Source: a bacterium (GTDB lineage Bacteria; Patescibacteriota; Minisyncoccia; Phycocordibacterales; UBA5272). From it: 64,000 bases of DNA. The notes beneath the pieces were generated by a model. That model searched no databases and was not told the DNA's origin. It saw nothing but the letters and a program-made list of their open reading frames with translations. The position numbers were made by a program, and so were the translations under genes. This document shows positions 5,681 to 59,538 of this stretch, piece after piece. The first letter of the stretch is position 1. The number at the start of each line of letters is the position of its first letter. The DNA lies in NCBI GenBank assembly GCA_027482685.1, contig JAIXVU010000008.1, forward strand, positions 4,652 to 68,651. The letters are read 5' to 3'.

Positions 5681-7635
<1,955 letters not shown>

Positions 7636-7639
7636 ACGA

Positions 7640-8263
7640 TTATATGCTTGGTGTTATCTGTGATGGCTGAGTTTCAGTAGATGTGGCAACAGTTGGTGTT
7701 TGTCCTTCAGCAAATCCAAATATCATATCATGAAGTTTCGCTCTCTCATCTGTATTATTCGCTGCTCGTTCAAGAATTGGTAAAAGCTCTTTGTTACGTA
7801 TTTCAGAGGTCTTACGGAAATCCAAGAACTCATCAAAGGAAATAAGCTTAGGTGATATCTTATCCCCAGGATCCTCACGAACCGCTCCACCTTGTGTTAC
7901 ATTACGTGCAATAAAAAAATGATTATCCCCTATTACCCATCCATATGGAGCTACGAACCATTTGGTGAATGCTTCTGCTTTGTACCCAGCCTCAAGCTCA
8001 AGCTTAAACTTCGCAGTTCTCTCTGGTGAGTCTAACCCTTCGCAGTGTCCACCTGGAAGAGCGAGAAAAGGTGCCTGTCCTGGTTGCTCCTCTTGTAGCA
8101 CGAGTATCTTATCTTCTACAGTTGCGATAATAGTCACACAGTCCGCACGAGAAGCCGCCTCAAAGATAACAGTAGATCCATCAAAAAGTGTCTGCTCCCA
8201 TTGCCATACGTTATATCGTACGCCTTCAAACATTAGTCGTGCATTGTCAGGGAGTTTTTTCAT
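7640..8263 (-). CDS. NUDIX-fold paralog with degenerate Nudix box (possible pseudo-enzyme)
   Basis: Clear paralog of the 7069-7635 gene, with N-terminal MKK(I/L)PD...F(D/E)G...WEQ..FDGS conserved; the box GGHCEGLDSPERTAKFKLELEAGY has lost the REx2EE residues. Confidence 0.65.
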   Translation of the reverse strand: MKKLPDNARLMFEGVRYNVWQWEQTLFDGSTVIFEAASRADCVTIIATVEDKILVLQEEQPGQAPFLALPGGHCEGLDSPERTAKFKLELEAGYKAEAFTKWFVAPYGWVIGDNHFFIARNVTQGGAVREDPGDKISPKLISFDEFLDFRKTSEIRNKELLPILERAANNTDERAKLHDMIFGFAEGQTPTVATSTETQPSQITPSI

Positions 8264-15908: not shown

Positions 15909-16364
15909 TTACTTCACATCCACTTTTACTTCCTCTGCATGAGATTTTACATTAACCTCTTCGTATATTTTCGCAATCTTACCTTGTTCGTCGATAAGAA
16001 AACTGGTGCGAGCTATTCCCATATACTCTCTCCCCATGAACTTTTTCTTTTGCCAGACGCCGTAGGCTTCACATACTTTCTTATCAACATCGGACAAAAT
16101 CGGAAAAGGTAACTCATATTTATCAGCAAACTTCTTATGGCTCTTTACATTATCTGCGCTTACCCCTAATATCACTAGTCCCATTTTCTGAAACTCATCA
16201 TGCCCATCACGAAAAGTACACGCTTCGGTAGTGCATCCTGGGGTATCGTCTTTTGGATAAAAATAGAGAAGTACTTTCTTTCCTTTATACATAGCAAGAC
16301 TGTGCTCGTTACCATCTTGATCTTGTAGTACAAAATCTGGTGCTTTTTCCTGTAATTTCATCAT
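15909..16364 (-). CDS. bcp: Peroxiredoxin, Bcp-type thiol peroxidase
   Basis: The active-site motif FYPKDDTPGCTTEAC is present. Confidence 0.85.
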   Translation of the reverse strand: MMKLQEKAPDFVLQDQDGNEHSLAMYKGKKVLLYFYPKDDTPGCTTEACTFRDGHDEFQKMGLVILGVSADNVKSHKKFADKYELPFPILSDVDKKVCEAYGVWQKKKFMGREYMGIARTSFLIDEQGKIAKIYEEVNVKSHAEEVKVDVK

Positions 16365-19776: not shown

Positions 19777-20433
19777 TTGGCAACTATGTGCGGAGTATTT
19801 CCTCATATGGTTGCCAACGGAAGTTGGCACTTGCTCTTTCAACCAACTGGAGAAACAACCATGTGCGGAATCGTACACCGTCCCACTCGTCGGAAGGATC
19901 TCGATCCGTCCACGTTCCCCAAGCTCTCAGTGTCTGCTGTGAGCAAGATCGTAGCCGCCTGTGAAGATGTCCATATCCCACATCTGGCGACTGCGCTTGT
20001 CCTTCACTTTGCCAATCACATGGCAGGCAAGAAGTGCTTCACGCTGGAAGTGATCCCGTTTGCTCTCTACGAGGGTGATAAGCGGATTATCTCGCGTGAG
20101 AGCGTGGAGTCCGAGGCTGCGGTGATACATCTAGCCATGGCCAGCACTGTCCGCCGCACCATCAACGCAGAACTGGCTGAGGTGGGGCTTGTCTTCGAGC
20201 TTGGTCACTGCTGTGATATTCAGATGTGGGAGCTCACTCGTGAAGAGGAGGCGGCCACGATGTCTCATGACTGGAACATCTGGCGTGCTGATAAGCTCCG
20301 CATGCTGACGAAAGATGCGGAAGAGATCGTTTCGTCGGAGGAGTTCATCTCCATTGCCGGCAATTTCAACCGAGATCTGATCAGCACGATGATCTCACTC
20401 GCCAGTGAGCAGCTGACACATGTCGACCACTGA
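19777..20433 (+). CDS. Hypothetical Cys/His-containing protein, GC-rich (~52%)
   Basis: Coding-like; no recognisable domain; abrupt compositional shift from the flanks. Confidence 0.45.
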   Translation: MATMCGVFPHMVANGSWHLLFQPTGETTMCGIVHRPTRRKDLDPSTFPKLSVSAVSKIVAACEDVHIPHLATALVLHFANHMAGKKCFTLEVIPFALYEGDKRIISRESVESEAAVIHLAMASTVRRTINAELAEVGLVFELGHCCDIQMWELTREEEAATMSHDWNIWRADKLRMLTKDAEEIVSSEEFISIAGNFNRDLISTMISLASEQLTHVDH

Positions 20434-20791
20434 TAAGTCATTCAGTGCTTTTCTGGCTGAGAATGCAGGCCATTTCCTTGAGCTTTGTCTTTTGGAAGGG
20501 TTTGTGTTCTCGGTGAGAAAAAGTGCTCACCGTATTACAATACGCTGTGCTCTTCCAAGCGGGATTGTCCGATTCGTCATCTTTGACGATCATCGGGTAG
20601 CAAGCCCCCACGGTGGCAAGCCACATGTGTGCAATCAGTGGTACAAAGCAGTTGGTGATCCTCTTTCGTTTACGATGGGGGAAGAAGTCAACGATGCTTC
20701 ACGACTTCAAAGTGTGCTACGAGCAACCGCTGTCATGTGTCTCACACAAAGCGAGGCATACAACGACATGAAAGCTCGTATCTTCCCTTAA
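20420..20791 (+). CDS. Hypothetical protein, GC-rich, translationally coupled to the upstream ORF
   Basis: 14-nt overlap with the previous ORF; terminator follows. Confidence 0.4.
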   Translation: MSTTDKSFSAFLAENAGHFLELCLLEGFVFSVRKSAHRITIRCALPSGIVRFVIFDDHRVASPHGGKPHVCNQWYKAVGDPLSFTMGEEVNDASRLQSVLRATAVMCLTQSEAYNDMKARIFP

Positions 20792-33139: not shown

Positions 33140-33523
33140 TTAGGATTGAAGTAATCTCTGCACTTCTTCAAGTTCTTCTGTCGATGCTTTGTATACATTA
33201 GACTTATCAAAATCACCTGGCGTGTTCGCTGGTACCAGATGAACATGGGCATGTGGAATACCAAAGCCTTCAATAAAAACACAAACACGTTCACATTTAA
33301 GTTGCGCCCTCATAACTTGCGCAATATATCTCACACGATGCATCATGTGGTCAAACATTTTTTCTTCAATGTCAAAAAACTGATCAACTTCTACCTTTGG
33401 GACGACGAGCACATGACCTTTTTTAATCGGATTGATGTCTAGGAATGCACACACATAGTCATCCTCATAAATTTTATATCCAGGAATCTCTTCATTAATA
33501 ATTTGTGTAAAGATAGATGCCAT
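33140..33523 (-). CDS. HIT-family nucleotide hydrolase
   Basis: Histidine-triad motif GIPHAHVHLVP. Confidence 0.8.
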   Translation of the reverse strand: MASIFTQIINEEIPGYKIYEDDYVCAFLDINPIKKGHVLVVPKVEVDQFFDIEEKMFDHMMHRVRYIAQVMRAQLKCERVCVFIEGFGIPHAHVHLVPANTPGDFDKSNVYKASTEELEEVQRLLQS

Positions 33524-34598: not shown

Positions 34599-35204
34599 TC
34601 AATTTTTCAAGAAAGTTTTTAAGAAGCTCTTTCTGTGATGATCAGTTACACCATAACTCTTGATAGCATCATAGTGAGCTTTTGTTCCATACCCTACATG
34701 ACTATCAAATCCATAGTGTGGAAATTCTTTTGCAAGCTCTCTCATCTTTGTGTCGCGGTAGACTTTTGCAATGATTGACGCAAGAGCTATCTGTCCAATC
34801 TTCTCATCGCCTTTAATTATCGTCTCTTGGTTAGAATACTCTGTAGGCGCATATAGTGAACCATCAAGATACACTTTTGTCTCTTTTGAAATATCGTGAG
34901 CATGCAGTACATCTAGAGATTTTTGCATCGCGGTTTTTATTGCGACAGAAAGTCCAAGTGTATCTATTTGATGAGCTGTCATTTCACCCAGTCCGTAGAT
35001 AATAGAACCCTCTTCAACTAATCCGTCTACTTTGTTTGCTATCTCTATGCGAACTTTTTCTGATAACTTTTTACTATCTTTAAGAACGCCTTTTGGAAAT
35101 AACGAAAGAATATCTACATCATGTCGCACCGCGCACGCGCACACAACAAGAGGTCCGGCTATCGGACCCCTCCCTACTTCATCAATACCAATTACGTATG
35201 TCAT
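34599..35204 (-). CDS. rnhB: Ribonuclease HII
   Basis: The N-terminal motif IGIDEVGRGPIAGPLV is present. Confidence 0.9.
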   Translation of the reverse strand: MTYVIGIDEVGRGPIAGPLVVCACAVRHDVDILSLFPKGVLKDSKKLSEKVRIEIANKVDGLVEEGSIIYGLGEMTAHQIDTLGLSVAIKTAMQKSLDVLHAHDISKETKVYLDGSLYAPTEYSNQETIIKGDEKIGQIALASIIAKVYRDTKMRELAKEFPHYGFDSHVGYGTKAHYDAIKSYGVTDHHRKSFLKTFLKN

Positions 35205-39785: not shown

Positions 39786-39809
39786 AGTAAATAGTTAATA
39801 AGTTAATAG

Positions 39810-40187
39810 TTAATGGTTGTCCTCTTTATTTGAGTTAATGAGCTTAGTTAACATCTTCATAATACTTTCTAACTCAGAAAACAATTCAACAAATTGCTTC
39901 TCAGAAATATAATCCAAGTTTTTTGCTATTGTCAGTTGGGTTTCTATCTCAGCGCCAGATCCTTGGGCTATTCTAAGGAAATGCATAAACTCTTTCTTCG
40001 AACCTCTCTTGCTTCCTTCTGCAATATTTGAAGAAATTGAAACAACCGCTCTTCGTAATTGAGAAGACAACCCATATAATTCTGCCTGAGGAAAACGAAT
40101 CGTAACTTTATAAACATTCGTTACAAATGCGATTGCATTTTGCCAGACAATTAAATCACGAAACGTCTTCATATTCTCAGTATACAA
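39810..40187 (-). CDS. Four-helix-bundle protein (TIGR02436; 23S rRNA intervening-sequence protein family)
   Basis: WQxA...FPxxElYGLSSQLRRAxVSISSNIAEG...EFxxFLxIAxGSxxEIETQL matches the family consensus; TTG start. Confidence 0.75.
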   Translation of the reverse strand: MYTENMKTFRDLIVWQNAIAFVTNVYKVTIRFPQAELYGLSSQLRRAVVSISSNIAEGSKRGSKKEFMHFLRIAQGSGAEIETQLTIAKNLDYISEKQFVELFSELESIMKMLTKLINSNKEDNH

Positions 40188-41584: not shown

Positions 41585-41679
41585 GTGGGTGGTTAATAGT
41601 TAATGGTAAATAGTTAATAGTTAATAGTAAACAGTTAATTGCAAACATCTATACTTCAAATTTCAAATATAAAAAAGAA

Positions 41680-42110
41680 AGTGCCCGCCAACAGAGTTGG
41701 CGGGCTGGGTTGAGACGAAGCTCAAGGTTCCCTACGGCATCAGGGGCATGCCGATGGGCGTACCGGATCGGAAATCGATCGGGCGCAGCAGGTGTCTCAT
41801 TGAGTCTCCTGGATGCGTCGGGCCGAGATGGGCCGACAGGTTGTTGGCGCGGCCGTCATGGTCACGCTCAGTCGAGCGAACCGCTCATGTTTGAGCGAGG
41901 CGGGCAAACGTCACGTGGACGTCGCCAGCCTGCCGCAAGCGGTTGGCTCTCGTGCCCGTGCCGATCAGGCGTGGGTGGTGGCGGCCAGCGTGGCCGAGGT
42001 CGTGTAGGCCGCGGCGCAGGTGCCGGCGGTATCTTGCAACACCAAACTTGCATGGCTCGCCTGCCTGATCACGTTAACCAGTATAGCAGGTATTATGATT
42101 TTGTTAAGTA
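41680..42110. other. ~430-bp GC-rich (~65%) apparently non-coding foreign fragment
   Basis: Only overlapping junk ORFs in several frames; abrupt GC shift; flanked by GTTAATAGTTAATGG repeats; minus-strand terminator-like hairpin GCCCGCCAAC-AGAG-TTGGCGGGC at its left edge. Confidence 0.5.
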
Positions 42111-42273
42111 CTAGACACGGTTTATGGTTAATAGTCAATGGTTACTAGTTAGAATGCTTTATAAATAAAGTAGTTTTAGAAAAAATAAAGTTAGAACCAT
42201 AAACTCACAACTAGAAACTAGTCTAATATGCTACACTTTTACGTATTCATATCTGGTATCCAACCATTAACTA

Positions 42274-42774
42274 TTGACCATTGACCAGCTACTACCCATG
42301 TCCTACATCCCCCAACTATTCCTCACCTACCCCACTATTCCGATTGCTTTTGCTTTTGGTGTTATTCTTATTTATGTTATTTATCTACATTATCGGTTGC
42401 GCATGCTTACTCGTGGAAATGGTGCAGCATCTCTTGAGTCCACCATTCATACCGCACTTGCTCATGCAAAAGAAATCCACGAAGAGAACAAACTCATCCG
42501 TGAACACGCTATATCACTAGATAAACGTGTATCTCATGCACTTCGTAATGCGCAGACAATACGCTATAAAGCATTTGAGACAAATGGTTCTAATCAAAGC
42601 TTTTCTGTTGCCCTTGTGAATGAACTTGGTTCTGGTGTTGTTATTACCTCTCTTCATGCACGAGATCGTCTCACTACATTTGCAAAACCGATAGAAAAAT
42701 ACACAAGTAGTTATGAACTAACTGAAGAAGAGCAAAATGTTCTAGAAGACGCACGGAATGCTCATACAATGTAA
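42274..42774 (+). CDS. Membrane-anchored protein (DUF4446-like)
   Basis: N-terminal TM; weak family resemblance. Confidence 0.4.
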   Translation: MTIDQLLPMSYIPQLFLTYPTIPIAFAFGVILIYVIYLHYRLRMLTRGNGAASLESTIHTALAHAKEIHEENKLIREHAISLDKRVSHALRNAQTIRYKAFETNGSNQSFSVALVNELGSGVVITSLHARDRLTTFAKPIEKYTSSYELTEEEQNVLEDARNAHTM

Positions 42775-44925: not shown

Positions 44926-44954
44926 ACGGGGAACGCTTGCGCGTTCCCCGTGTT
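44926..44954 (+). terminator. Rho-independent terminator
   Basis: ACGGGGAACGC-TTGC-GCGTTCCCCGT followed by TTT. Confidence 0.55.
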
Positions 44955-44990: not shown

Positions 44991-46064
44991 TCAGTGCACT
45001 GTGGCACCTGCAGCCGTCTGAGCGGCTGCGGTCACGACCGGCGCCTGTGGCGCCGGCTCTTCGTCAGCCTCGACCACATCGGCGTTGCCGTTGGCAATCG
45101 ACGCGGCGACTTGGTCGACCTCGTCCTCGTCCCAGAGCGGACGGAGGATGCTGGCGATGATGCTTGCGGCCGGATTCGAGTGCCCGGACTTGAGCAGTTG
45201 GTATGTCGGGATGTAGTTCCCGACCACCAGCCCTTCCGGGGCGCCGAGCGGTGCCACCGTCAGCTTGAGCGCGTGGATCATCGTGGCCCGCTCGCCCTTC
45301 CCTACCGGCACGAAGCAGGTCTGGAAGATGAGAGGCTTGTCACCGACGTTGAAGCCGAACGTGCCGACCTCGTCCTGGTCCATCACTTTCAAGAGTGAGC
45401 TCCCGATCTCGCCTGCAGCGATCTGCTCCCGCAGACCATCCATGGCCTCGCGGATGTTGATCGCTTCGGCGCCACCGGCGACCTCGATTGCACGCAGAAG
45501 TACGTCCATGACGGCCTTCTTCGTGTTTTCGAACTGCTGGTTGACCTCACGGTCACCAGTGCTCGCCCGCTGGAAGTACCGGCGCTTAGCCGGGTCGTCG
45601 TGCGAAGCGATTGATCGCAACTCATCGAAAAAGATGAAGAAGCCGACCGGCACCTTCCCGTTCTCCGAGCCGATCACCTTGGCCGCTTGGCGGTTGCCGC
45701 GCGGATTCGTGATAGTCGTACACTCGAAGAGGACATCTTCGAAGTAGAGATTCTCGACATCGCCGAAGGCGAAGAGAAGAAAATCCTCCGTGGCCTGCAA
45801 CCGGATGGCTGCGTTCTTGAGCGTCTCCTTGACGGGGTCACTCGTGGCAGACGTGCGCTCGACCATAACAGTCAGGTCGGGGTTGTTGCCGGCGGCCGTG
45901 GCCAACTGCGACGCGATGTCACCATGCGTCAGAGCGCTCCTGCCGGTGCGGCCGGTGTGGCCGCGGCGACCGGTGCGGCGAGCACGGCCGTTTGTTTCGT
46001 CGTCGTTGCTGTCGTCACGGAAATTCTGCTTGCCCATGTCGGGACTCCTTATTTGAGAATTCAT
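44991..46064 (-). CDS. Hypothetical protein, GC-rich (~62%) island gene A, basic Arg/Gly-rich N-terminus
   Basis: Strong coding signal; no recognisable domain. Confidence 0.55.
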   Translation of the reverse strand: MNSQIRSPDMGKQNFRDDSNDDETNGRARRTGRRGHTGRTGRSALTHGDIASQLATAAGNNPDLTVMVERTSATSDPVKETLKNAAIRLQATEDFLLFAFGDVENLYFEDVLFECTTITNPRGNRQAAKVIGSENGKVPVGFFIFFDELRSIASHDDPAKRRYFQRASTGDREVNQQFENTKKAVMDVLLRAIEVAGGAEAINIREAMDGLREQIAAGEIGSSLLKVMDQDEVGTFGFNVGDKPLIFQTCFVPVGKGERATMIHALKLTVAPLGAPEGLVVGNYIPTYQLLKSGHSNPAASIIASILRPLWDEDEVDQVAASIANGNADVVEADEEPAPQAPVVTAAAQTAAGATVH

Positions 46065-46150
46065 TACAGGGAACTACGGCGGCTATTCGGTTTTTGCTAC
46101 CCAATCAGGGTGAACGCGATTAGTCGTCGGCGTATTATAGCATAATTAAG

Positions 46151-46209
46151 TACTTTGTCAATATCATCACAGGCACTTAACTTGACAAAAGTACAAAATA
46201 GTGTATACT
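46151..46209. promoter_or_regulatory. Divergent promoter region with palindromic -35 pair
   Basis: GTACTTTGTCAA-N20-TTGACAAAAGTAC; rightward promoter TTGACA-N16-TATACT at 46182-46209. Confidence 0.6.
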
Positions 46210-46307
46210 ATATTCACTGGACTATTGGGGAAGTAAAAACCTTGATAGAGATCCGGTAAGTTCATTGACTTTTCCCGCATTTACTGTAGCGGGTCAGGAG
46301 AAAATTC

Positions 46308-47483
46308 ATGCCGAAGAACAAGGGTGCTGACGGACGCGGTGACAGCAAGAGCATCGCTGAACGCGAAAAGCAGTCGCAGGACGCGAAGCTCCGTCGAAAG
46401 AAAGTCGCCGCTGTCGAAGGCGGTGCGGTCAAGTCGTTCGCCGACCTGACCGCTCTGCCGGTCGAGAAGGTTGTCGTTGCGACGGCGACCATCGACGACA
46501 TGATCAACGGCCGCGTGGCCACTGGCCACGTCATCGGTGTCGGGGAGGGCAACCTCTTCGAGGTCACCCAGAAGGGCCTGACCCTTCGCGCAGCGGAAGA
46601 CCAGGCTCTCACCGGCTACACCACGCGGGGAGAGAACATCTTCCTTCCCTTGTGGTCGCTCACGCTGGACGAGTTCACCTCGCCGCTTCGTAACGGAGCG
46701 AAGAACCAGTTTTTCGCCGACAAGCAGGAAGCGATGTGGAAGCACATCGCTTCGGAGATGACTGACGAGCAGACCCGCGCGCTCAAGAAGCGCTTGGATG
46801 ACGAGAAGGAGTCCGGCAAGTACGTCGGCGAAGATCGCGAAATCTTCGCCCGAGCGAACCGGAACATCAGCGACGCGTTCGAGGCACTCACCCTCGAGAA
46901 CTGCTTCGTGGAGTTCCGGATCGGCAACGATCTCGAGAAGAGCATCGTCGTCGGCGTTAGCGTCAGCAACGGCGCACTCGAGCTTCGCTTCGGCCACGTC
47001 GGTGGCGGGCATGAGCTCGCTGGCAAGGTGATCAAGGGCACCGTCCTCTGGGCTTCCGGCGGGCTGTTGCCCGAGACCTTGAGCGAGGCTCAGCTCAACT
47101 CGGTCTTTGGACCGTCGCTCACCGCCATGCGGTCTGTGCTGCTGAACGGCACCCACCGTGAGGTGGTAATATCCGGGCTCCTGGCTGCCCACCAGCGCCT
47201 CCGCAAGGAAGGGCGGGCAAATCAGAAGGTGGCATCGGTACTCACACTGGTCCCCTCCAAGAAGGTCGAGACTCCGGTCGCTCAGACCGTCGCCCCGACC
47301 CCTGCCCCCAAGCCGGTCGCGCAACCCGCACCGGTGATGACCGGAACGGTCTCTCCCGAACAGGACAACATCACCCAGCTCATCAAGAGCTTGCGTGAAG
47401 CCGGTATGAGCCCGAAGGATATCGGCGAAGCCATTGCGGGCTACAACACCAACAAGGCCAGCTCCGGCAGCAAGTCTGCCTGA
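46308..47483 (+). CDS. Hypothetical protein, GC-rich island gene B (basic N-terminus, Pro-rich linker, small C-terminal domain)
   Basis: Strong coding signal; no recognisable domain. Confidence 0.55.
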   Translation: MPKNKGADGRGDSKSIAEREKQSQDAKLRRKKVAAVEGGAVKSFADLTALPVEKVVVATATIDDMINGRVATGHVIGVGEGNLFEVTQKGLTLRAAEDQALTGYTTRGENIFLPLWSLTLDEFTSPLRNGAKNQFFADKQEAMWKHIASEMTDEQTRALKKRLDDEKESGKYVGEDREIFARANRNISDAFEALTLENCFVEFRIGNDLEKSIVVGVSVSNGALELRFGHVGGGHELAGKVIKGTVLWASGGLLPETLSEAQLNSVFGPSLTAMRSVLLNGTHREVVISGLLAAHQRLRKEGRANQKVASVLTLVPSKKVETPVAQTVAPTPAPKPVAQPAPVMTGTVSPEQDNITQLIKSLREAGMSPKDIGEAIAGYNTNKASSGSKSA

Positions 47484-47520
47484 TCGGCCAAGTGGCTCGT
47501 GCAATGCGAGCCACAAACAC

Positions 47521-47560
47521 GCTCCACCCCGACTAACCGTCGTGCGGTGGAGCTTTTTTA
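47521..47560 (+). terminator. Rho-independent terminator
   Basis: GCTCCACC...GGTGGAGC followed by TTTTTTATTT. Confidence 0.7.
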
Positions 47561-47638
47561 TTTGTAATGCATTTTCAGTATTCGCAAAAAATACATTTTT
47601 ACGCTATAATCTCTTAACAGTTTTCAAAAAGTAAATAT

Positions 47639-47722
47639 GCCCGGGTGGCGAAATTGGTAGACGCACTTGCCTTAGGAGCAAGCGAGGCAACTCATGAAGG
47701 TTCAAGTCCTTTCCCGGGCACC
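47639..47722 (+). tRNA. tRNA-Leu (anticodon TAG)
   Basis: GCCCGGG acceptor, D-arm GGCGAAATTGGTAGACGC, anticodon loop CTTAGGA, long variable arm, T-arm, CCCGGGC-A; own promoter TTCGCA...TATAAT upstream. Confidence 0.9.
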
Positions 47723-49339
47723 CTTTAGTACATTTTGATTCTCAAGAGAGTCAAAAGGTGGATTAAGTGTTTGTTTATAAGGTTTTTTATCCTTAACATA
47801 AAAGTTCAAGAAGATTTTCCTCATTATATAGTCTAAATCACTCATTTGTGTCATTTTAGGTATGTTTTCTGGGACTTTTTCCATAAGTTTAATAAATTCA
47901 GAATAAGTAATAATTCCATCTTTTTCGTTGTCTAATAACTTTTTAAGTTTAGTTATCTCTTTTTCTTTATCTTTAATACTTGCCTCAATCTTTACAATGT
48001 CATTTCTATAATAATCTTTTATATTATCCGACTCATTTCCTACAAGTAAATCTTTCACTTGTTCAAACCTTTCCTTTAAATAGTTTATTTGTTTTGATAA
48101 CACCAAAATGTTATTTTTCAATATCCCAGAATTTTTTGATAAAACATTTTTCATCTCATTAACAAAATGGTCATAACTCCCTTTACTTGAAAAAGGTTTT
48201 TGTTCTAGATAGTCAGTTGCAAATCCTATTATCTCTTTAGCTCTTATAGATTTATTTCTTTGAGGGCATTCCACTGTATCACATCTGTAATAAAAGTACC
48301 CCTCAGAGCCGTTCTTTAGTTTTTTGCTTGTTATTCCAGGTGTTAACGCTTCATTGCAGTCACCACAAATAATCATTCCAGTCATTAAATTAGCTTTCTT
48401 GTTATCTCCTTTTTTATATCTCTTGGAAAGTTTAATAAATTCTGAATTACCAGTTAGTTTATTTATTCTAAAAAATTCATCAACTGTAATCATAGGAATG
48501 AAGCCTTGTATTTTTATGAGATTAACAACCACACCTTTTCCATACATAAGAATGCCTGTATATACTGGGTCTTTCATTATTGTTAACAACCTTTGTTTGG
48601 TCATTCCATAAACTTTAGGAGATGTTTCTGTATTTGAGTGATAATAGTTATTATCCTTTAAGTAATCACATATTTCATCAAAAGTCTTTCCTTCAAGGCG
48701 AAGCTGAAAAGCGTTTTGCAACAAAACAAAGTTTTCACCATTTGGTATAAGATTACTATTTCTATCTTTGAAATAACCATTCTTTGCTTTGTTTACATAA
48801 GCACCTCTTTCAATACTTTTTTCATTGCCACGCATAACATCATCTGATAATTTATCGGAGTATTCTTTTGAGAGAACAAAAGTAATGCCTAGTAACATTT
48901 TTCCACTCGTATCATTCGTAAATGAAAAACTAGGAAACTTCAAATCTGCTATGATGTGCTTATCAAGCAAATCTATAACCTCTCCCGCCTCTTTCATATT
49001 TCTGGATAACCTATCTGGATGCCAAGCAATTATTCCGTCGTACTTACCACTTTTTAATCCATTTAACATTTCTCTAAAAATGGGTCGTATATCTGGCTCT
49101 TTAGCAGACCTTTTTTCTATAAGAATATCCACCTTCTTTAATTCGTTTCTTTCAGCAAATTCAACACATTTATCAACCTGGTCCTCAATTGAAAAAACTT
49201 GTTTACTTTCTTCATCCGTTGACTTTCTTGCATAGATTACATATTTCAATTTTGCTGTGTCTACATCTCTGCCGTTTATTGGTATTGCTAACCTCAATAA
49301 TTCAGCTAACTCTTCAGGTGTTTTTGGAAAATCTGACAT
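47702..49339 (-). CDS. Large serine recombinase (resolvase catalytic domain, recombinase domain, zinc-ribbon, coiled coil)
   Basis: N-terminal YARKSTDEE...DRLSR; 545 aa; stop codon lies inside the tRNA-Leu T-arm. Confidence 0.85.
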   Translation of the reverse strand: MSDFPKTPEELAELLRLAIPINGRDVDTAKLKYVIYARKSTDEESKQVFSIEDQVDKCVEFAERNELKKVDILIEKRSAKEPDIRPIFREMLNGLKSGKYDGIIAWHPDRLSRNMKEAGEVIDLLDKHIIADLKFPSFSFTNDTSGKMLLGITFVLSKEYSDKLSDDVMRGNEKSIERGAYVNKAKNGYFKDRNSNLIPNGENFVLLQNAFQLRLEGKTFDEICDYLKDNNYYHSNTETSPKVYGMTKQRLLTIMKDPVYTGILMYGKGVVVNLIKIQGFIPMITVDEFFRINKLTGNSEFIKLSKRYKKGDNKKANLMTGMIICGDCNEALTPGITSKKLKNGSEGYFYYRCDTVECPQRNKSIRAKEIIGFATDYLEQKPFSSKGSYDHFVNEMKNVLSKNSGILKNNILVLSKQINYLKERFEQVKDLLVGNESDNIKDYYRNDIVKIEASIKDKEKEITKLKKLLDNEKDGIITYSEFIKLMEKVPENIPKMTQMSDLDYIMRKIFLNFYVKDKKPYKQTLNPPFDSLENQNVLKGARERT

Positions 49340-49446
49340 GCTGTTATATTATCACAATACAAAAGAGAAAAGACGGCTAGAAAATAAAGCTGAAGCACTC
49401 TTGGTTGTTCCAAAATTGACCATTATTAATAAAAAGAGTACTTTGT

Positions 49447-49911
49447 TTAGCGTTTTACACTACCCCATTTATCAAGCATATCTAGCGCTTTCTTTTTTTG
49501 TTCTTTAATTTTTAATATGTTTGCCTCAGAATCATAGTATAAATTACTTGAATCTTGTGGCATTACTCTTGGTTTTCCATATAGACGGTCAAAGAAAATT
49601 TGAATAGCCTTTATGTCACCATTTCTTGCTTTGTTTATAAGTTGAATAAGTATAATTTGTTCAATATCTATATCTTCCAAAGTAAATTTATCTTTATGTG
49701 TTTCGTTATATTGATTTACATAATTTATAGCAATTCTTTCCATTGCCAAATCTATGAGAGTGCTATAATTTCTCACCCCTTTTTGTCTTCCATTCGGGTT
49801 GCCTGACTGACCCTTTTGGAAAGGTTTCAAGTTACTTTTACTTTTAGGATTACTTCCCCGCAAAGTACCGTCTTTTGATATTGTTTCACTATTTCTTTCA
49901 CTGCTTTGCAT
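49447..49911 (-). CDS. Phage-associated DUF5681-like protein
   Basis: GNPNGRQKG motif near the N-terminus. Confidence 0.45.
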   Translation of the reverse strand: MQSSERNSETISKDGTLRGSNPKSKSNLKPFQKGQSGNPNGRQKGVRNYSTLIDLAMERIAINYVNQYNETHKDKFTLEDIDIEQIILIQLINKARNGDIKAIQIFFDRLYGKPRVMPQDSSNLYYDSEANILKIKEQKKKALDMLDKWGSVKR

Positions 49912-49996
49912 ATGTATATCATAATAAAAAATAACAAAATAATACAGAGAAAGTGTATATGTTTATTCTTTGAGCAAATTCATTAGTACCCGTAAA

Positions 49997-50758
49997 TTAC
50001 TCTGGCATAGTTTCTTCTGTGAGAATCACAGGGGGTTGAGCGCTCTGTACAATTTCTACCAACTTTGCTTTTTTCTTTAGCTCGGTCTTTGCTTTTGGCT
50101 TAGAAACATCTAAGGTTGTAGTAATTATTTGGTAAACAGATTCTAAAATATCTTCACTAGAAAAGTTTACCCCTGTCTTACTTTTTAGGTTTTTCTTTAG
50201 AAGCTTAATAACCGACTCATCAAATAAGTATTTTGATAATGAAACTGGCGACAAACTGTCAACTTTTTTCCAATAAATATCAAGTAAATTCTTTGAAATA
50301 GCTTTTTTAGTAATAAGTTCAAACAAAGTAAAACAGTCTTTGTAATCTTTTTCATTGAGTAAATCTAAATCAAAAACAAGTTTTGTGTAGACTGGCTTTG
50401 CAAACATAACCTTATAGAGCTGAAACTGTTTACCATTTAAGAGTAGTATCCAGTCTATACCCTCACTAGCTGAGTAACCCAAACTTTGCCTTAGGTGATT
50501 TTCATTTAGTTTTATACCTAGCGACTTAACTTCTACAACCATCCTCTTTTTCTTACCTGTTTGAATAACATAATCAGCATAACCACCACTTATTTCATAC
50601 TCAGTTTTAATCTCTTCATTTTGAGAGTATCCGAGTACGTTTCTTAAAAAATCATTTATAAGTAATCTAGTGCCAGACTCGTTTAATTTTGGGTTATTTT
50701 TATATGCCAAAACTAAATCTTTCTTATAATCCTTAATAGCATCTTTATGGTTTTTCAT
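49997..50758 (-). CDS. PD-(D/E)XK nuclease-fold protein (HsdR-N/Mrr-like core)
   Basis: GYADYVIQ...VVEVK reads as a D...E-x-K motif. Confidence 0.5.
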   Translation of the reverse strand: MKNHKDAIKDYKKDLVLAYKNNPKLNESGTRLLINDFLRNVLGYSQNEEIKTEYEISGGYADYVIQTGKKKRMVVEVKSLGIKLNENHLRQSLGYSASEGIDWILLLNGKQFQLYKVMFAKPVYTKLVFDLDLLNEKDYKDCFTLFELITKKAISKNLLDIYWKKVDSLSPVSLSKYLFDESVIKLLKKNLKSKTGVNFSSEDILESVYQIITTTLDVSKPKAKTELKKKAKLVEIVQSAQPPVILTEETMPE

Positions 50759-50765
50759 AAGACTG

Positions 50766-51212
50766 TTAGCGAGTTTTATCTTTTAGTTCATCTAATAATT
50801 TTTTCAACTTGTAAGGATTAGCAACGTTCCTTAACACCACTTCTTGCCCCCCAGTTCCAGCAGTATCAATAGAAATAATCCCCGATTTGGTAAAGACTCT
50901 TTGTAGGAATGGTTCAGAAACATACGTATCAGTTATCTTGTTGTAGTCAATACTCACCAAACTTGTTGACAACCATCCTCGGTGGATTAAAACTCTTTTA
51001 TTAGTAAAAGCATAGACATTTGCTCGTTTAACGTAAAATAAGAAGTAGAATAAAACAAAAAGAGGAGCCCCTATTGTGAAAAATGGTAAAGATATAACTA
51101 ACCAAATAATCATATAAAAAATTCTATATTTATCACCGACTGAAAACTCTTCTTTAACTTCTTCACTGTTACCTAAAACTTTCTTCCAAATATCTTGATT
51201 TACTGTATTCAT
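50766..51212 (-). CDS. Membrane-anchored bacterial PH-domain protein (bPH_2/DUF304)
   Basis: TM hairpin followed by a YdbS/YdbT-like PH domain. Confidence 0.55.
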   Translation of the reverse strand: MNTVNQDIWKKVLGNSEEVKEEFSVGDKYRIFYMIIWLVISLPFFTIGAPLFVLFYFLFYVKRANVYAFTNKRVLIHRGWLSTSLVSIDYNKITDTYVSEPFLQRVFTKSGIISIDTAGTGGQEVVLRNVANPYKLKKLLDELKDKTR

Positions 51213-51284
51213 ATTATTAAGTTGTTAAAATTAATTTTTAAGAGCTATATAAAAAACAAAATAGGCACCCCATATAGCGGAGTG

Positions 51285-51405
51285 CCCAAAAACCAATAGA
51301 TTAACTACTGATTATGTTCTCCGCATAGGATGCCTATGCTGTACACAATCAGTAGTTAACCCTTGTGGGTTTTTGATTTATTTCTTATTGGTTTTTGGGC
51401 AGTTT
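51285..51405. repeat. Long imperfect palindrome inside the integrative element
   Basis: GCCCAAAAACCAATAGATTAACTACTGATT...AATCAGTAGTTAAC...TATTGGTTTTTGGGC. Confidence 0.6.
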
Positions 51406-51759
51406 AATTATATCACATAGAGGAAAACACCTTATTACTACTATATAATAAGTTCAATAACTCCTTTGTATATACAAAACTATCTCTTTTCTATTCCAAG
51501 AGTTACAACTCTCCCATCCCCACTTGTTACTTGCTGTGGCAAAGTACCTGTACTTACTGGAGTTTTTGGAAGATGTTGAACTACATCTGTTAAGTTGTCT
51601 TTTCTCATATACTAAAAGTATACCATGCTTAATAAGTAATAATTAGAGTGTCTTTGGCATACTCTTTAGACAGAAACTCTTTCATAGACTTATTCCAAAT
51701 CTTTACTACTTCAAGGTTATTTATTAGTATTTCAAAAAGTTCAAGTGTGGTATGATACT

Positions 51760-51815
51760 CTGCACAGAATAATAAATACCCATACTGTAATCAGTATGGG
51801 TATTTATTATTCTGT
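51760..51815. repeat. Perfect 24-bp-arm palindrome
   Basis: CACAGAATAATAAATACCCATACTG-TAATC-AGTATGGGTATTTATTATTCTGTG. Confidence 0.8.
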
Positions 51816-51822
51816 GAGCATT

Positions 51823-51911
51823 TGAAGCATGTGACCTGCGTCACATGCGGAAGGACTTGAATAGAGGTCGCGAAACTTTATCGACGAGCTTGCGAGGAGA
51901 AGTTTTGTGAC
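51823..51911 (+). repeat. tRNA-associated structured module copy 1 ending in the tRNA-Leu 3'-end duplicate
   Basis: Hairpin GCATGTGAC-CTGC-GTCACATGC, core GGTCGCGAAAC...GTTTTGTGACC, then caagtcctttcccgggcac. Confidence 0.7.
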
Positions 51912-52003
51912 CAAGTCCTTTCCCGGGCACATAAATACAAAAGACAGACTTTCAAGGTCTGTCTTTTGTATTGACTGTGTTTCTATAGAAGCAAACAAAC
52001 TTG

Positions 52004-52082
52004 CTTTGTTTGCGGAAGGACTTGAATACGAGGTCACGAAACCACTTCGAGCAGAGCGAGGTAGTTTTGTGACCAAGTCCTT
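52004..52082 (+). repeat. tRNA-associated structured module copy 2 (degraded 3' end)
   Basis: GCGGAAGGACTTGAATACGAGGTCACGAAAC...GTTTTGTGACCAAGTCCTT. Confidence 0.65.
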
Positions 52083-53916: not shown

Positions 53917-54540
53917 TTACCGTATTTCAATTAACACTTCGTTACGAGTCATCCATGGTGGAGTCCATGGTGCGTTATACCCCGCATATGATGGCTTCCC
54001 AATGATCTCTATTGTATCTTTAGATAATAGATCAAGTAATTTCTTTTCCATCGTCTCTATACGAGTATCAGTTCTGTATCCAGAAAATCTAATTACAGCA
54101 ACTTGTTTGGCTGGAACTTCGACAATCTTAACCCTTTCATCAGTTGGTGTAGGAAGAGTATCTGGTGTATATGACTTTGGCATCCCAAAAGATATTGTCC
54201 TTGTTTCTTTTTCGTTACCTACGACAACAGGTGCAGTCATTGCAATTTTCTCTGATCCTCCTTCTTGCATAACTACAGGAGATGTCATTGCAATATTTTG
54301 CTTTTTTGTATTTGCTCCGAATATATAGCTAGCGACGATGGTGAAGCCTTTGTTCATCGACTCACTATATGATCCAGTCACTGTGGTTTGAGCCACAATG
54401 TGTGATGGATAACTTCGTATCTCGTATTCTTTTTCATTTTTCACAACTGAATATTCCGCCTGCTCAACACGTGAAGCAAAGTAACTGTATATAGACCAAA
54501 TAACAAGCACAAGGACGATAACAAACAAAGTTATTATCAT
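53917..54540 (-). CDS. SOUL/HBP heme-binding family protein with N-terminal TM
   Basis: YEIRSYP...TSPV pattern. Confidence 0.55.
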   Translation of the reverse strand: MIITLFVIVLVLVIWSIYSYFASRVEQAEYSVVKNEKEYEIRSYPSHIVAQTTVTGSYSESMNKGFTIVASYIFGANTKKQNIAMTSPVVMQEGGSEKIAMTAPVVVGNEKETRTISFGMPKSYTPDTLPTPTDERVKIVEVPAKQVAVIRFSGYRTDTRIETMEKKLLDLLSKDTIEIIGKPSYAGYNAPWTPPWMTRNEVLIEIR

Positions 54541-54945: not shown

Positions 54946-55548
54946 TTACTTTACAACCTTTAATGTGAATAATCCAATAGTTGATACAAATATCGCACCG
55001 AGTGTGTCCATCAGCATATCCTTTTGTGCATCCCATATATCCCCTTGAGATCCGAGGAATGCGATACCAGCCTCACCCCCTGCCTTAACCGCGTACTGCC
55101 ATTCAATAAGTTCATAGACCATAGCAAGAGTGCCAATGAAGCATACAGAGAGAAAGAATGCCCAGAACTTCGTAGCTACTTTCTTATATTTCAAAACATA
55201 CTCCATGAGTCCATATGCAAAGAAGCCTGTCGTGAAGTGCCCAACCCTATCGAACATATTTCTCTCAAACCCGAAAAAATTATTAAACCAGTCAAACGGC
55301 ACACGCTCAAATGTATAGTGTCCGCCTATTGTATGAAGAAACGGCAAAATGAACATAAAGAAATATGCGAGATTAGAAAATCTAATACCACGAATATAGA
55401 GAACAACGAGGAATAGGACAATCGCTACAATCGGAAGATTTTCTGCATACCACACATCACGTGAATACGGGTTGATACCAAGTGCGATGAATTCAACAAC
55501 ATAAATACTTAGTAATAAATGTGGAAAATACTTTTGTATGAAGGTCAT
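54946..55548 (-). CDS. Multi-pass membrane protein (DUF2238/YjdF-like)
   Basis: Six TM segments; weak family resemblance. Confidence 0.4.
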   Translation of the reverse strand: MTFIQKYFPHLLLSIYVVEFIALGINPYSRDVWYAENLPIVAIVLFLVVLYIRGIRFSNLAYFFMFILPFLHTIGGHYTFERVPFDWFNNFFGFERNMFDRVGHFTTGFFAYGLMEYVLKYKKVATKFWAFFLSVCFIGTLAMVYELIEWQYAVKAGGEAGIAFLGSQGDIWDAQKDMLMDTLGAIFVSTIGLFTLKVVK

Positions 55549-56737: not shown

Positions 56738-57892
56738 GTGATGACGTCAATCTCGATGTATTTCTATCTGCTGTACTTCACAGGGTCACCGTTTCAACAA
56801 GCGAGTTACCACTGGGGAACATGGTTCTTTCTTGCTGGGCTGCTCTTTAGTAGATTCGGCGTGAATGATGTTGGGTCACATGGCTACCTTGCCTTTTTCG
56901 GTAAGGCGGTTCGTCATGCTGATGGCTCATATGTGAAGTGGGGAGATGGTATGTACCTTATCCCCACACTTTTCCCTCCATTTAATGTCATTGGCGTCCC
57001 TCTTGGTTGGACGATGAAGCACGCAAGTACAAGTGAGATCCCTATCCGTCCGGTAACACCACAAGAAGATAATTATGTCTTCTTGGATCATCGCTTGCCA
57101 CGTTACAACATCAATTCAACGGTTGGGTATTGGCAACAGACCTTCGCGAGGCTAACTGAGAATTTTATTAGTTGGGTCTTTAGCTACAACCCACAGAGCG
57201 AACTACGCTACCAGAAGATTGGTAGTATTCTCATGGTAATCGGTCTTGCGTTAGGGTGGTTCATGCAACAGCGACAGGGATACTTCCCCCAAACTGAACA
57301 AGTGATCACATATCAATCTGGTGAACAAAGTGCGGCAAAGGCCAAGATGATAACTAATAATAATCGCCAGCCGCAAGTAGTAGAGAGTGCGGCTACAATG
57401 CCTCGCCAACAACCTCCTGTCATCAATGGGTATACCGTCAACCTTGCTGTGGGGCAAGTGCCGAGATATCCATCACGTGCAGACTTCATGGAGGTGGTCA
57501 AGACCTCAGGAGTGCAGTACTACTACCGAGATGTAGACGGTCTCAAATACTTCTGGTATGTAGAAGGTGAAAGTGAAGCACCTGTTACCCTACCTCCATC
57601 ATCCTGCAAGATAGTGCCTGCAGGAAAAGAGGTAAGGCTATCCTCCAGTGTTCCACCACGGTACGTCATCAACATGGAAGAGTCCATTCTATACCGTGTG
57701 AAGAGCGCATACCTTCCCGAGAACGAACGCAGTCTGTTGTTCCCCAATAGTTCACAACTACGCAAGGGCACCTGGGGCATACTCCGTGCCAACTGGAACA
57801 CCTATGACAGGCAGAGTGACGGTATATTGGCGCGTACCCTTCCACAAGGCTCATTACCTTCGTCACAGTATGGTGGGCTTGTTTGTTTCTGA
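56738..57892 (+). CDS. Hypothetical protein, GC-elevated (~50%) island
   Basis: Long ORF with an N-terminal hydrophobic segment; no domain. Confidence 0.4.
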   Translation: MMTSISMYFYLLYFTGSPFQQASYHWGTWFFLAGLLFSRFGVNDVGSHGYLAFFGKAVRHADGSYVKWGDGMYLIPTLFPPFNVIGVPLGWTMKHASTSEIPIRPVTPQEDNYVFLDHRLPRYNINSTVGYWQQTFARLTENFISWVFSYNPQSELRYQKIGSILMVIGLALGWFMQQRQGYFPQTEQVITYQSGEQSAAKAKMITNNNRQPQVVESAATMPRQQPPVINGYTVNLAVGQVPRYPSRADFMEVVKTSGVQYYYRDVDGLKYFWYVEGESEAPVTLPPSSCKIVPAGKEVRLSSSVPPRYVINMEESILYRVKSAYLPENERSLLFPNSSQLRKGTWGILRANWNTYDRQSDGILARTLPQGSLPSSQYGGLVCF

Positions 57893-57995: not shown

Positions 57996-58024
57996 TTGAC
58001 AAAAAAGTGTAAATAGTGTAAGAT
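57996..58024 (+). promoter_or_regulatory. Sigma-70-like promoter nearly identical to the 46182 promoter
   Basis: TTGACAAAAAAGTGTAAATAGTG-TAAGAT versus TTGACAAAAGTACAAAATAGTG-TATACT. Confidence 0.6.
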
Positions 58025-58089
58025 AGTAAACAGATGTTGTTTGAATGTTGTATAAGTTTAAGCAACTAATTCCACCGTTTGGAGGAAAG

Positions 58090-58479
58090 ATGAATGATGA
58101 AAAAAATCCTGAGGCGCCAAAAGTAGTTCTCGATGAACTACTTGGGAAGCTGGGGGTTGGAAAGGTGCCCAGCACCACCCCAACCCTCACGCTACCACCG
58201 GCCCCGACTGTGAGACATGCTACCGATTCGTCACGTGACATTGGTGGATATGCCTCACCCCCTCCGTCATCGGTCACCGATGGCAAGAAAGAAGAAAACA
58301 GCGCATTTGATCTGAAGGGGTTTCTCTTCAGGTTTGGAGTGAGCTCAGTTTTTTGGCTTGTTGTTGTGGGAGGAATGATACTCTACTTTGACAACAAAAG
58401 AGTCATTGCAGAATCATCCTCTCAAGTCGCAGCACCGAAGGGTGCATCGCGACAAATTCCTATCCCGCCCTCCAGGTGA
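58090..58479 (+). CDS. Hypothetical Pro-rich protein with C-terminal TM, GC-rich
   Basis: GGAGGAAAG RBS before ATG at 58090. Confidence 0.4.
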   Translation: MNDEKNPEAPKVVLDELLGKLGVGKVPSTTPTLTLPPAPTVRHATDSSRDIGGYASPPPSSVTDGKKEENSAFDLKGFLFRFGVSSVFWLVVVGGMILYFDNKRVIAESSSQVAAPKGASRQIPIPPSR

Positions 58480-58508: not shown

Positions 58509-58880
58509 ATGGCTGGACTCCCCACAACCGTTGGCAGTAGGTCTGCCGCACCGGCATCGGCAACAAAGAGCAACAACGCCACCCAGGTGTTCGTTGTCGG
58601 CGTTCTCGTGGCGATGCTCGTCATTTTCCTCCACCTCTGGGGGAAGTATGACACTGATGCGCGCACCCAGCGCGCACAAGAATACAGTCAGACGGATGGA
58701 GCTCGTGAAGAACGAGCCTACCGTCTCGCGCTTGAAAGACTCGAAGCGGAAAAACTTCGTGCGCAAGCAGACTTGGAGAGGGCAAAACGGCTCGACGGCC
58801 GCACTGTTCTGATCCCGCCCAATGGAGCTGTCTGCCAAGACGGCTACCCATGGTCATCAACCACCGGATGTAACCGGTAG
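58509..58880 (+). CDS. Hypothetical single-TM protein with coiled-coil segment, GC-rich (~58%)
   Basis: AGGAGA RBS before ATG at 58509. Confidence 0.4.
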   Translation: MAGLPTTVGSRSAAPASATKSNNATQVFVVGVLVAMLVIFLHLWGKYDTDARTQRAQEYSQTDGAREERAYRLALERLEAEKLRAQADLERAKRLDGRTVLIPPNGAVCQDGYPWSSTTGCNR

Positions 58881-58891
58881 AAAGGATAAGC

Positions 58892-59170
58892 ATGTCTGAC
58901 CCAGCACCAAAGGCCGGAGGTCTAAAGCCCGGCGCAATCCTGCTCATCATCGGAGCGGTCGTTATCGGTGTCATCCTCATCGGGGTCGCCATCGAGGAAT
59001 TCCTCTTGTCCATTGCACGAGGAATCGGCAACGCATCCACCGAGCTCGCTCGTCGAGCGGGAGATATCAGTGTGGCAAAGCTGATCGCCCACGACATCGG
59101 AACCTGGATTGCAACAGCAATTGTTGTCCTGCTCTTCATTGGGTGGGCGGCGAAAAAGCTGAGGGAGTAG
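58892..59170 (+). CDS. Hypothetical two-TM small membrane protein, GC-rich
   Basis: 92 aa; two hydrophobic helices. Confidence 0.45.
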   Translation: MSDPAPKAGGLKPGAILLIIGAVVIGVILIGVAIEEFLLSIARGIGNASTELARRAGDISVAKLIAHDIGTWIATAIVVLLFIGWAAKKLRE

Positions 59171-59334
59171 CATCCCCTCCGTGATGACAACACGTAAAAA
59201 TCACCGAAGGCTACCCGCTTTCGTGTACATAGAATGTGTTCTCGTTTTACCGCGAGACCACAACCTCATGTGCGCGGAAAGAACGGGTAGCCTTCTTTTG
59301 TTTTGTATTGAAGTCGTATTGTTAGCCATCTCCA

Positions 59335-59420
59335 ACCCCGCCTTTTCAAAGCCTTGTGTAGTGCGACGGCGCAGAAGAGAGATAATTTCTAGCAAGAAAT
59401 TTACGTGCCTTGAAATGGTG
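59335..59420 (+). repeat. Structured repeat family B, copy 1 (upstream of dprA)
   Basis: CCTTTTCAAAGCC...TGCGACGGCGCA...AATTTCTAGCAAGAAATT...GCCTTGAAATGG: an outer stem plus two inner hairpins. Confidence 0.65.
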
Positions 59421-59538
59421 GGTTACAAAAAAATATGATAAGTTTTTATACAAGATATCTTACGTATCGAACCCCTCATTTTCGAAAAATGAACCCATTT
59501 TTACACCCCATTTCATTTCCTATATACTTAACTTTACA

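Follow-up and report, generated by a model that had tools for sequence, protein, structure and literature searches.

Two promoters 11.8 kb apart in a bacterial genome of the Patescibacteria, each ahead of a GC-rich unit, resemble one another beyond their hexamers, and the form they share recurs at the same loci in related genomes. The DNA concerned is a 64,000-nucleotide stretch of contig JAIXVU010000008.1 (assembly GCA_027482685.1; order Phycocordibacterales, UBA5272), here called the window, to which all positions given without further label refer. One promoter, at 57996-58024 on the + strand, precedes a cluster of genes for small membrane proteins, and the other, at 46182-46209 on the same strand, precedes a gene designated here gene B. 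On balance the two are probably members of a clade-conserved class of near-consensus promoters for the primary sigma factor, heading self-contained and probably very strongly expressed cassettes. In an RNA polymerase that carries the primary sigma factor, sigma region 4 would read the -35 element, regions 2 and 3 would recognize the -10 hexamer and the extension ahead of it, and initiation would fall about 7 nt past the -10. The resulting RNA would carry a 60-110-nt leader, a canonical Shine-Dalgarno sequence, GC-rich open reading frames (ORFs) and its own terminator, and such cassettes, dependent on the Shine-Dalgarno interaction, would be kept at fixed chromosomal loci across the clade. The likeness of the two promoters would then reflect the nearness of both to the same optimum for the same polymerase, the two being neither recent copies nor joint arrivals. 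As sequence, the motif is an ordinary near-consensus sigma-70 promoter; the special point is the use that this lineage makes of it.

The two sites and their promoter class

The 57996 site (TTGACAAAAAAGTGTAAATAGTGTAAGAT) has the -35 element TTGACA (6 of 6 consensus positions), a 17-nt spacer and the -10 element TAAGAT (4 of 6), and the 46182 site (TTGACAAAAGTACAAAATAGTGTATACT) has TTGACA (again 6 of 6), a 16-nt spacer and TATACT (5 of 6); both fit a sigma-70-type definition with a near-TTGACA and TAnnnT 16-18 bp apart. The exact decamer AAATAGTGTA occurs at these two sites and nowhere else in the window, and with one mismatch allowed there are 12 occurrences against 7.8 expected, which is no enrichment. 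When the spacers are aligned at their right ends, 11 of 16 positions are identical, and the 8 nt adjoining the -10 are the same throughout. A comparison of 40,640 pairs of promoter-like sequences, drawn from related genomes, gave matches at these levels with empirical frequencies of 0.005 (spacer) and 7e-4 (the 8 nt adjoining the -10). The pair of nearly identical promoters to which an earlier note on this DNA had drawn attention is present as it was quoted, and so are the GC-rich units that it placed downstream, with gene B at 62% GC and the membrane-protein cluster at 49-57% against about 40% for the window; the ATG and Shine-Dalgarno of these GC-rich ORFs lie 58-91 nt downstream of the two sites.

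A weight matrix of two blocks, derived from 22 promoters of relatives and from none of the window, gave its two highest scores on both strands of the 64-kb window to the 46182 site (36.6 bits) and the 57996 site (25.4 bits). The next-best score, 15.3 bits, fell on the divergent promoter of gene A, the neighbour of gene B, and the remainder were at 15 bits or below; the maximum in 20 locally shuffled windows was 20.6 bits. Outside the 29-nt core the two sites are no longer alike, and no repeat was found flanking either of them; each promoter has a closer counterpart in its orthologue from another genome than in the other window site. The 46182 promoter and its orthologue on contig L209, for instance, are 94% identical over 34 nt, and the ORFs that they precede are about 35% identical as proteins (L-numbers denote contigs of related genomes, which were sampled mostly within about 20 kb around topA). 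The orthologues of the 57996 promoter are on L199, L145, L146, L200, L162, L132 and L209, and those of the 46182 promoter on L209, L210, L211, L144 and L002; in both window promoters the spacer ends in T-A-G-T-G.

From orthologous loci in the window and on L002, L131-L162, L199-L202 and L209-L211 a set of 24 promoters was assembled, with the common form TTGACA(AA), a 16-17-bp spacer and T(-17) A G T G(-13) abutting a -10 of the type TAnnnT. The upstream extension is present as T(-17) in 20 of the 24, A(-16) in 15, G(-15) in 22, T(-14) in all 24 and G(-13) in 23. Information in the set peaks only at the -35 with the two As that follow it, at -21 to -13 (W-rich at the start of that stretch) and at the -10 TAnnnT followed by A-T, and positions -26 to -22 in mid-spacer carry about 0-0.4 bits; because the mid-spacer is free and the information is in these three places only, the conserved positions are those of RNA polymerase contacts. 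The column frequencies give a probability of about 0.04 that two class members share the whole octamer AAATAGTG, and so the extended motif common to the window sites amounts to class consensus plus modest luck. More than 15 related genomes retain sites of the class at matching loci, though the ORFs that they precede have diverged to 25-50% identity.

In the relatives, matches to TTGACA-N16/17-TAnnnT whose spacer ends in GTG form the exact 5′ edges of GC-elevated segments that had been located independently, and the mean downstream GC excess is +0.107 for this type as against +0.013 for other matches to the same pattern (p=3.5e-7). The GTG ending is paired with a perfect TTGACA in 17 of 21 relaxed promoter-like matches. 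The compact relative L209 has four perfect-TTGACA promoters, all of them ahead of its only GC-rich units, and in the stretch 6203-6993 of L211 a class-type promoter at 6203, TTGACA-17-TATAAT, stands ahead of a Shine-Dalgarno-led gene for a trypsin-like protease with a GC content at third codon positions (GC3) of 0.53.

With its perfect TTGACA, 16-17-bp spacing, TAnnnT, T-R..TG upstream of the -10, A/T-rich upstream flank and position 60-110 nt before a Shine-Dalgarno and ATG, the class is like sigma-70 promoters in general. It differs from the canonical extended -10 element, in which T is at -15 and G at -14, as its TG sits at -14/-13 with the hexamer directly after. Gram-positive promoters reportedly have a ‘-16 region’ of the form TRTG; when T-R-T-G was sought at -17 to -14, T(-17) and A(-16) agreed with T-R, and the TG was one base off. 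Unlike sigma-70 promoters elsewhere, the complete form is rare in this lineage and confined to a special class of genes. The promoter itself is of a known kind, and what is new is the shifted upstream extension together with its exclusive pairing with leadered, Shine-Dalgarno-led, GC-rich and fast-evolving cassettes, a pairing that stands within an otherwise apparently leaderless lineage of Patescibacteria.

Expression signals of ordinary and GC-rich genes

The motif of the 46182 and 57996 sites is not this genome's generic promoter. The earlier note had reasoned that it would be just that were it common upstream of ordinary host genes; no promoter of the class precedes any of the approximately 52 ordinary genes of the window, and this rarity supports a regulon-like class. 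The promoters of tRNA genes and of IF-2, clpB, sod and topA are of the TGn-extended -10 type with a weak -35. Strong Shine-Dalgarno sequences in the window are essentially confined to genes A and B and to m1, m2 and m3, the genes of the membrane-protein cluster, and the other matches are of 4 bases only, GGAG before the GC-rich ORF at 19861 and matches before two ordinary genes. In 22 of the 52 ordinary genes the start codon is preceded by a -10-like hexamer, often in the form TGn-TATACT or TGn-TATAAT, whose end is 4-10 nt and most often 6-7 nt away from it (examples are at 4401, 7640-8263, 15909-16364, 33140-33523, 34599-35204, 53917-54540 and 54946-55548). At gene A, gene B and the m1-m3 operon, a full -35/-10 promoter, a leader of 60-110 nt and a canonical Shine-Dalgarno coincide.

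Independent gene calls in L209, L211 and L002 gave the same split. A noisy automated survey of 686 ORFs from close relatives, which holds wrong strands and wrong starts so that the main reliance is on manual tables, gave a GC3 excess of 0.10 for ORFs with a Shine-Dalgarno against 0.01 for those without (p=4e-18), and a leaderless signature in 41% of ordinary ORFs against 15% of GC-rich ones. In bacteria rich in leaderless genes, among them Actinobacteria and Deinococcus, the -10 box lies directly upstream of the start codon. The ordinary genes here are like this, in lacking a Shine-Dalgarno and having a -10 hexamer 6-9 nt ahead of the ATG; unlike it, the promoter class here is a minority with leaders and Shine-Dalgarno sequences. 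The pattern suggests that leaderless mRNAs may be the default in this lineage. Ordinary genes would, in the proposed scheme, be served by a TGn-extended -10 with a poor -35 and lack a Shine-Dalgarno, with about 40% of them having the leaderless-type signature. Searches of the literature found no description of this combination of promoter, Shine-Dalgarno and GC pattern.

The step in GC content starts at the ATG, and the leaders have a host-like GC of 0.39; transcription-coupled mutational bias, considered as a cause of the GC-richness, was rejected as unlikely on these grounds, and there is no marked strand skew either. GC3 is 0.5-0.8 in these long-resident, clade-restricted genes as against 0.2-0.35 genome-wide, and candidate causes for the persistence of this difference are codon or mRNA selection, GC-biased conversion at recombining loci and repeated replacement of ORFs. 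A wider proposal, which we put forward tentatively and consider rather doubtful, is that the lineage has two expression channels, a default one that is extended -10, leaderless or Shine-Dalgarno-less and AT-rich, and a minority one that is -35-dependent, long-leadered, Shine-Dalgarno-led and GC-rich. The minority channel may be reserved for a few fast-evolving proteins peculiar to the clade, from the gene A/B module, the small membrane-protein cassettes and short GC-rich ORFs, and could switch as a block, for example via sigma region 4 or the availability of the anti-Shine-Dalgarno (no 16S rRNA gene was found in the sequence analyzed). Selection on mRNA or codons would, in such an arrangement, actively maintain the GC-richness, which would not be a relic of transfer.

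A separate observation concerns the leaders of host genes. Motifs of the form TAACTA(A/T)T(T/A)AC or ACTAATTACTAAT stand just before start codons of genes that are operon-internal or leadered, with 14 matches against about 2 expected (they include 41588-41640, 39797-39822, 5624, 33142, 42125-42160 and 42265-42290). These motifs may be a translation-initiation signal that works without Shine-Dalgarno pairing.

Origin, regulation and the weight of the alternatives

TopA relatives, at best 87% identical, place the genome, a MAG of roughly 40% GC, in Candidatus Paceibacterota, as one of Nomurabacteria type. The genes flanking the two units are housekeeping genes, for IF-2, RbfA, DprA, topoisomerase I, ClpB, SodA, ATP synthase and RNase R. 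In relatives the order is sod, csd, a GC-rich unit, DUF4446, IF-2, rbfA, gene A/gene B, tRNA-Leu and rluA, followed by further genes, then by p384 and/or the small membrane-protein cluster, and then by dprA-topA. This comparison drew on contigs with close relatives of IF-2, gene B and TopA, and relatives that have both loci with their promoters have TopA 76-87% identical. On L209 the whole stretch from rbfA to dprA is only about 7 kb; in the window, insertions have pushed the gene B and membrane-protein units 11.8 kb apart. The slot of gene B is syntenic throughout the relatives. The membrane-protein cluster precedes dprA in seven further relatives; the insert between p384 and dprA as it is in the window was found in only L150 among 13 other genomes with a p384 homologue, the other 12 being without it.

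One of these insertions is an integrated element of 4.2 kb and 31% GC (47703-51930), bounded by a 19-bp direct repeat, CAAGTCCTTTCCCGGGCAC, at 47703-47721 and 51912-51930 that corresponds to the 3′ end of tRNA-Leu(tag). Its cargo includes a large serine recombinase of 545 amino acids (47702-49339, - strand), a DUF5681 protein and an HSDR_N/PD-(D/E)XK-like protein, and a further repeat, of 20 bp, is at 51901-51920 and 52063-52082. Genes A and B are on the 5′ side of tRNA-Leu, away from the attachment site at its 3′ end, and because of this position gene B is not part of the element. As side observations, duplications of the 3′ ends of tRNAs (Leu(taa), Lys and Cys) lie 160-190 bp away from the originals, at 54612-54633/54805-54826, 55786-55811/55948-55973 and 56316-56331/56490-56505, and an inverted repeat at 52032-52074/55816-55858 (43 nt, 91% complementary) spans 3.7 kb; the duplications and inverted repeat resemble traces left behind when elements integrated and excised repeatedly within this tRNA cluster.

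It was in this setting that the earlier note had allowed for a common origin of two foreign islands. The promoters would in that case be copies of one sequence, made by duplication or brought in with the same or related mobile GC-rich elements. We regard such an origin as improbable. Phage morons are said to be independent promoter-ORF-terminator units of deviant composition, and each unit here is likewise a self-contained module with a consensus promoter, an intrinsic terminator and odd base composition. The rbfA-dprA region is, moreover, a hot spot of integration with its tRNA 3′-end duplications and serine-recombinase element, the cluster is patchy, as only some relatives have it between p384 and dprA, and in some genomes the slot before tRNA-Leu is occupied by at least one family unrelated in sequence. 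Yet a likeness confined to 29 nt with no flanking repeat, between promoters that are nearer to their orthologues than to each other, does not fit a copying event. Nor does the composition of the units fit a single source, as GC3 is about 0.7-0.8 in the gene A/B slot and about 0.5-0.65 in the cluster, both in the window and in L209. No integrase gene or direct repeats flank either unit, and the trio expected of an island (a tRNA 3′ end, repeats and an integrase) was not found; the recombinase element has its own repeats and its own low GC, and gene B is not at the 3′-end attachment site. The families are clade-restricted, and no relatives of genes A and B were found in phage or plasmid collections (blastn, tblastn) or in IMG/VR (protein scans). 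The units differ from morons in having no prophage context, their neighbours being rbfA, tRNA-Leu, p384 and dprA, and in their clade-wide synteny and lack of PHROG matches. Both units are more probably long-standing residents than DNA acquired jointly from outside, although only some relatives have the membrane-protein cluster.

It is also unlikely that a dedicated regulator or an alternative sigma factor reads T-A-G-T-G together with the TTGACAAA -35 and switches the GC-rich genes as a regulon. Such a factor would account for the one-base offset of the TG relative to the TGn that ordinary genes have, for a class almost exclusive, within the clade, to GC-rich Shine-Dalgarno-led units, and for the near-palindrome TAGTGT/ATACTA of several members. 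The near-palindrome, however, is present only in members whose -10 is TATACT and is lost with TATAAT, TAGTGT or TAAGAT, and no conserved dyad or direct repeat of the kind expected of an operator was found beyond the positions contacted by RNA polymerase. The earlier note had suggested a specific regulator reading AAATAGTGTA, a suggestion that fares poorly given that the information is only at the -35, at -17 to -13 and at the -10, the mid-spacer being free, and that TTGACA/TAnnnT is the consensus of the primary sigma factor. Gene A, of the same module as gene B, has the canonical TGC-TATAAT both in the window and in L002, and topA has ATG-TATACT. The exact motif TTGACAAA-N9/10-TAGTGTATAMT is carried, moreover, by at least 120 unrelated contigs in metagenomes of gut, marine and further biomes, and among the matches listed the mean downstream GC shift is 0.006 and none comes from these loci.

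Coincidence, with two good promoters alike merely through TTGACA, TAnnnT and an A-rich spacer in an AT-rich genome, is the least credible of the explanations considered. In its favor, the sharing of 8 positions is not extraordinary given class membership, the window has no excess of one-mismatch versions of the decamer, the strict pattern is frequent in metagenomes as noted above, and a looser pattern has more than 120 matches in viral contigs among the matches listed, a figure that speaks for commonness and not for enrichment. The empirical frequencies of equal spacers and equal last 8 nt are too low for it to be comfortable, however, and neither the singling out of just these two sites by an independently trained matrix nor the recurrence of the same features at orthologous loci in more than 15 genomes would be expected.

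Several points weigh against the preferred reading of a primary-sigma promoter class heading strongly expressed cassettes. A class promoter at 1278 on the - strand of L210, TTGACAAAAATATAAAAATAGTGTAATGT, precedes a 213-amino-acid gene of ordinary GC (the locus is L210 558-1278, - strand), and GC-rich genes with no perfect -35 exist at 19861 in the window and in L150. The genes for ATP synthase, clpB and IF-2 have ordinary GC3, and promoter strength alone is therefore insufficient for GC-richness. The class set was chosen in part by the GTG feature, though the later additions from L209-L211 and L138 were chosen by position and mostly fit, and the topA-centered sampling of the relatives limits the count of class members per whole genome. 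With its TG at -14/-13, one base nearer to the hexamer than in TGn, the extension may be recognized in a different mode or by a different factor. Promoter strength, transcription starts, the sigma factor involved, high expression and the leaderless nature of host mRNAs are, furthermore, all deduced from sequence.

Almost nothing is known of how gene expression is organized in the mostly uncultured Patescibacteria. If the pattern is genome-wide, it would provide a usable model of promoter and ribosome-binding site for a clade in which most genes look leaderless, and a clear case in which deviant GC does not equate with recent horizontal transfer, which matters for methods of island prediction. 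Under the same condition, the signature of TTGACA, 16/17 bp, TAGTG-TAnnnT, leader, Shine-Dalgarno and GC-rich ORFs would flag what are probably the most strongly expressed and fastest-evolving proteins, and the uncharacterized proteins so flagged would be natural candidates for surface or host-interaction functions.

Genes A and B, the membrane-protein cluster and other units

Gene B (46308-47483, + strand) encodes 391 amino acids and has 62% GC and a GC3 of 0.81. Its predicted 5′ leader, of about 91 nt (46216-46307, + strand), has a TTCATT box and the Shine-Dalgarno AGGAG at 46296-46300, and a small hairpin at 46274-46293 within it is weakly supported. A weak terminator-like hairpin with a T-run follows the gene at 47536-47556 on the + strand, ahead of tRNA-Leu (47638-47723). 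The divergent gene A (44991-46037, - strand) encodes 348 amino acids, also has 62% GC, with a GC3 of 0.79, and has an ATG at 46037, where its annotated start belongs, preceded by the Shine-Dalgarno AAGGAG. Its promoter (46134-46161, - strand) is back-to-back with that of gene B and is a 12 of 12 match, TTGACA, 16 nt and TGC-TATAAT with a canonical TGn; the orthologue in L002 has the same form and that in L211 the GTG form. An intrinsic terminator of gene A, at 44926-44951 on the - strand, is conserved in L002.

Both are real proteins, as substitutions by codon position follow the order 3 > 1 > 2 with many synonymous differences. A 411-amino-acid ORF antisense to gene B (46281-47516, - strand) was rejected as a shadow ORF, its GC2 (GC content at second codon positions) being as high as its GC3, at about 0.62; it is longer than gene B, and gene callers could mistakenly choose it. 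A full HMMER pass through 1.84 billion representative proteins found 21 relatives of gene B, and the contexts examined were all in this lineage. In the family a basic tail at the N terminus precedes a folded core, and a linker rich in Pro and Ala leads from there to a conserved helical motif at the C terminus, L..LREAG.S..EIG.AVAAY...KSA. The AlphaFold model of gene B has a mean pLDDT of 78 with a confident core, and a Foldseek search with it against PDB and BFVD gave no similar fold, just as a sequence-profile search of PDB with the family gave nothing significant. Relatives of gene A are few, and its AlphaFold model from 4 sequences, with a pLDDT of 40, is unusable for a fold search; that A and B might form an encapsulin shell and its cargo is a speculative idea. 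Pfam, PHROG and PADLOC gave no matches to genes A and B, to m1-m3 or to p384. The slot upstream of tRNA-Leu is mostly held by one fast-evolving superfamily, with hhalign giving 96% probability for a relationship between the gene B family and a second group in this slot that BLAST cannot align with it; a third group in the slot has no detectable relation to the gene B family.

Genes for S-layer and other major surface proteins evolve fast, are specific to their lineage and combine strong promoters with 5′ leaders that are long and stabilizing. As a lead only, the units here are like them in their presumably strong promoter, in a long leader that contains a hairpin and in diverging so rapidly that relatives have little similarity; unlike S-layer proteins, the products of genes A and B have basic N-terminal tails, and neither a signal peptide nor an S-layer domain or fold was detected in them.

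The earlier note had counted four genes in the membrane-protein cluster, and there are three, all on the + strand and each with its own Shine-Dalgarno, that of m3 (AAGGA) being weaker. The predicted leader of the cluster, about 58 nt (58031-58089, + strand), would begin with a transcription start near 58031 and has the Shine-Dalgarno GGAGG at 58081-58085. The product of m1 (58090-58479), 129 amino acids, has one predicted transmembrane helix; the gene has a GC of about 0.5 and no family match. The 123-amino-acid product of m2 (58509-58880, GC 0.57) has one transmembrane helix and a coiled-coil-like segment, and has a homologue in L199, and the 92-amino-acid product of m3 (58892-59170, GC 0.57) has two to three hydrophobic segments. 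A further ORF, at 59181-59438, is probably not a gene and overlaps a conserved hairpin of about 100 nt ending in a T-run (59197-59312, + strand) between m3 and dprA. This hairpin also precedes dprA in L199, L135 and L152, RNAalifold gives it 33 pairs, of which 3 have compensatory changes, and it probably ends the transcript of the cluster. Rfam has nothing for it, nor for the GC-rich unit at 41.7-42.1 kb described next.

That third unit, between csd and DUF4446 (41681-42080, - strand), has 61% GC, a promoter at 42080-42107 (TTAACA, 16 nt, TGC-TATACT) and a strong terminator at 41681-41707. At this position relatives have a perfect TTGACA-16-TGC-TATAMT and then short GC-rich ORFs of unrelated sequence.

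Other genes of the window deserve a brief mention. The protein p384 (56738-57892), of 384 amino acids and with no family match, is encoded directly upstream of dprA in many relatives, and its relatives are 22-32% identical over the full length, making it another fast-evolving lineage-specific gene. At 39810-40187 is the gene for a four-helix-bundle protein of the 23S rRNA intervening-sequence family with a sub-threshold bAvd-like match, and no reverse transcriptase or repeat pair suggestive of a diversity-generating retroelement was seen near it. The ORFs at 19861-20433 and 20420-20791, with GC3 of 0.63 and 0.44, have no family match and no promoter with a perfect -35; the first has its GGAG box, and a hairpin, GTTGGCAAC...GTTGCCAAC, precedes the pair.

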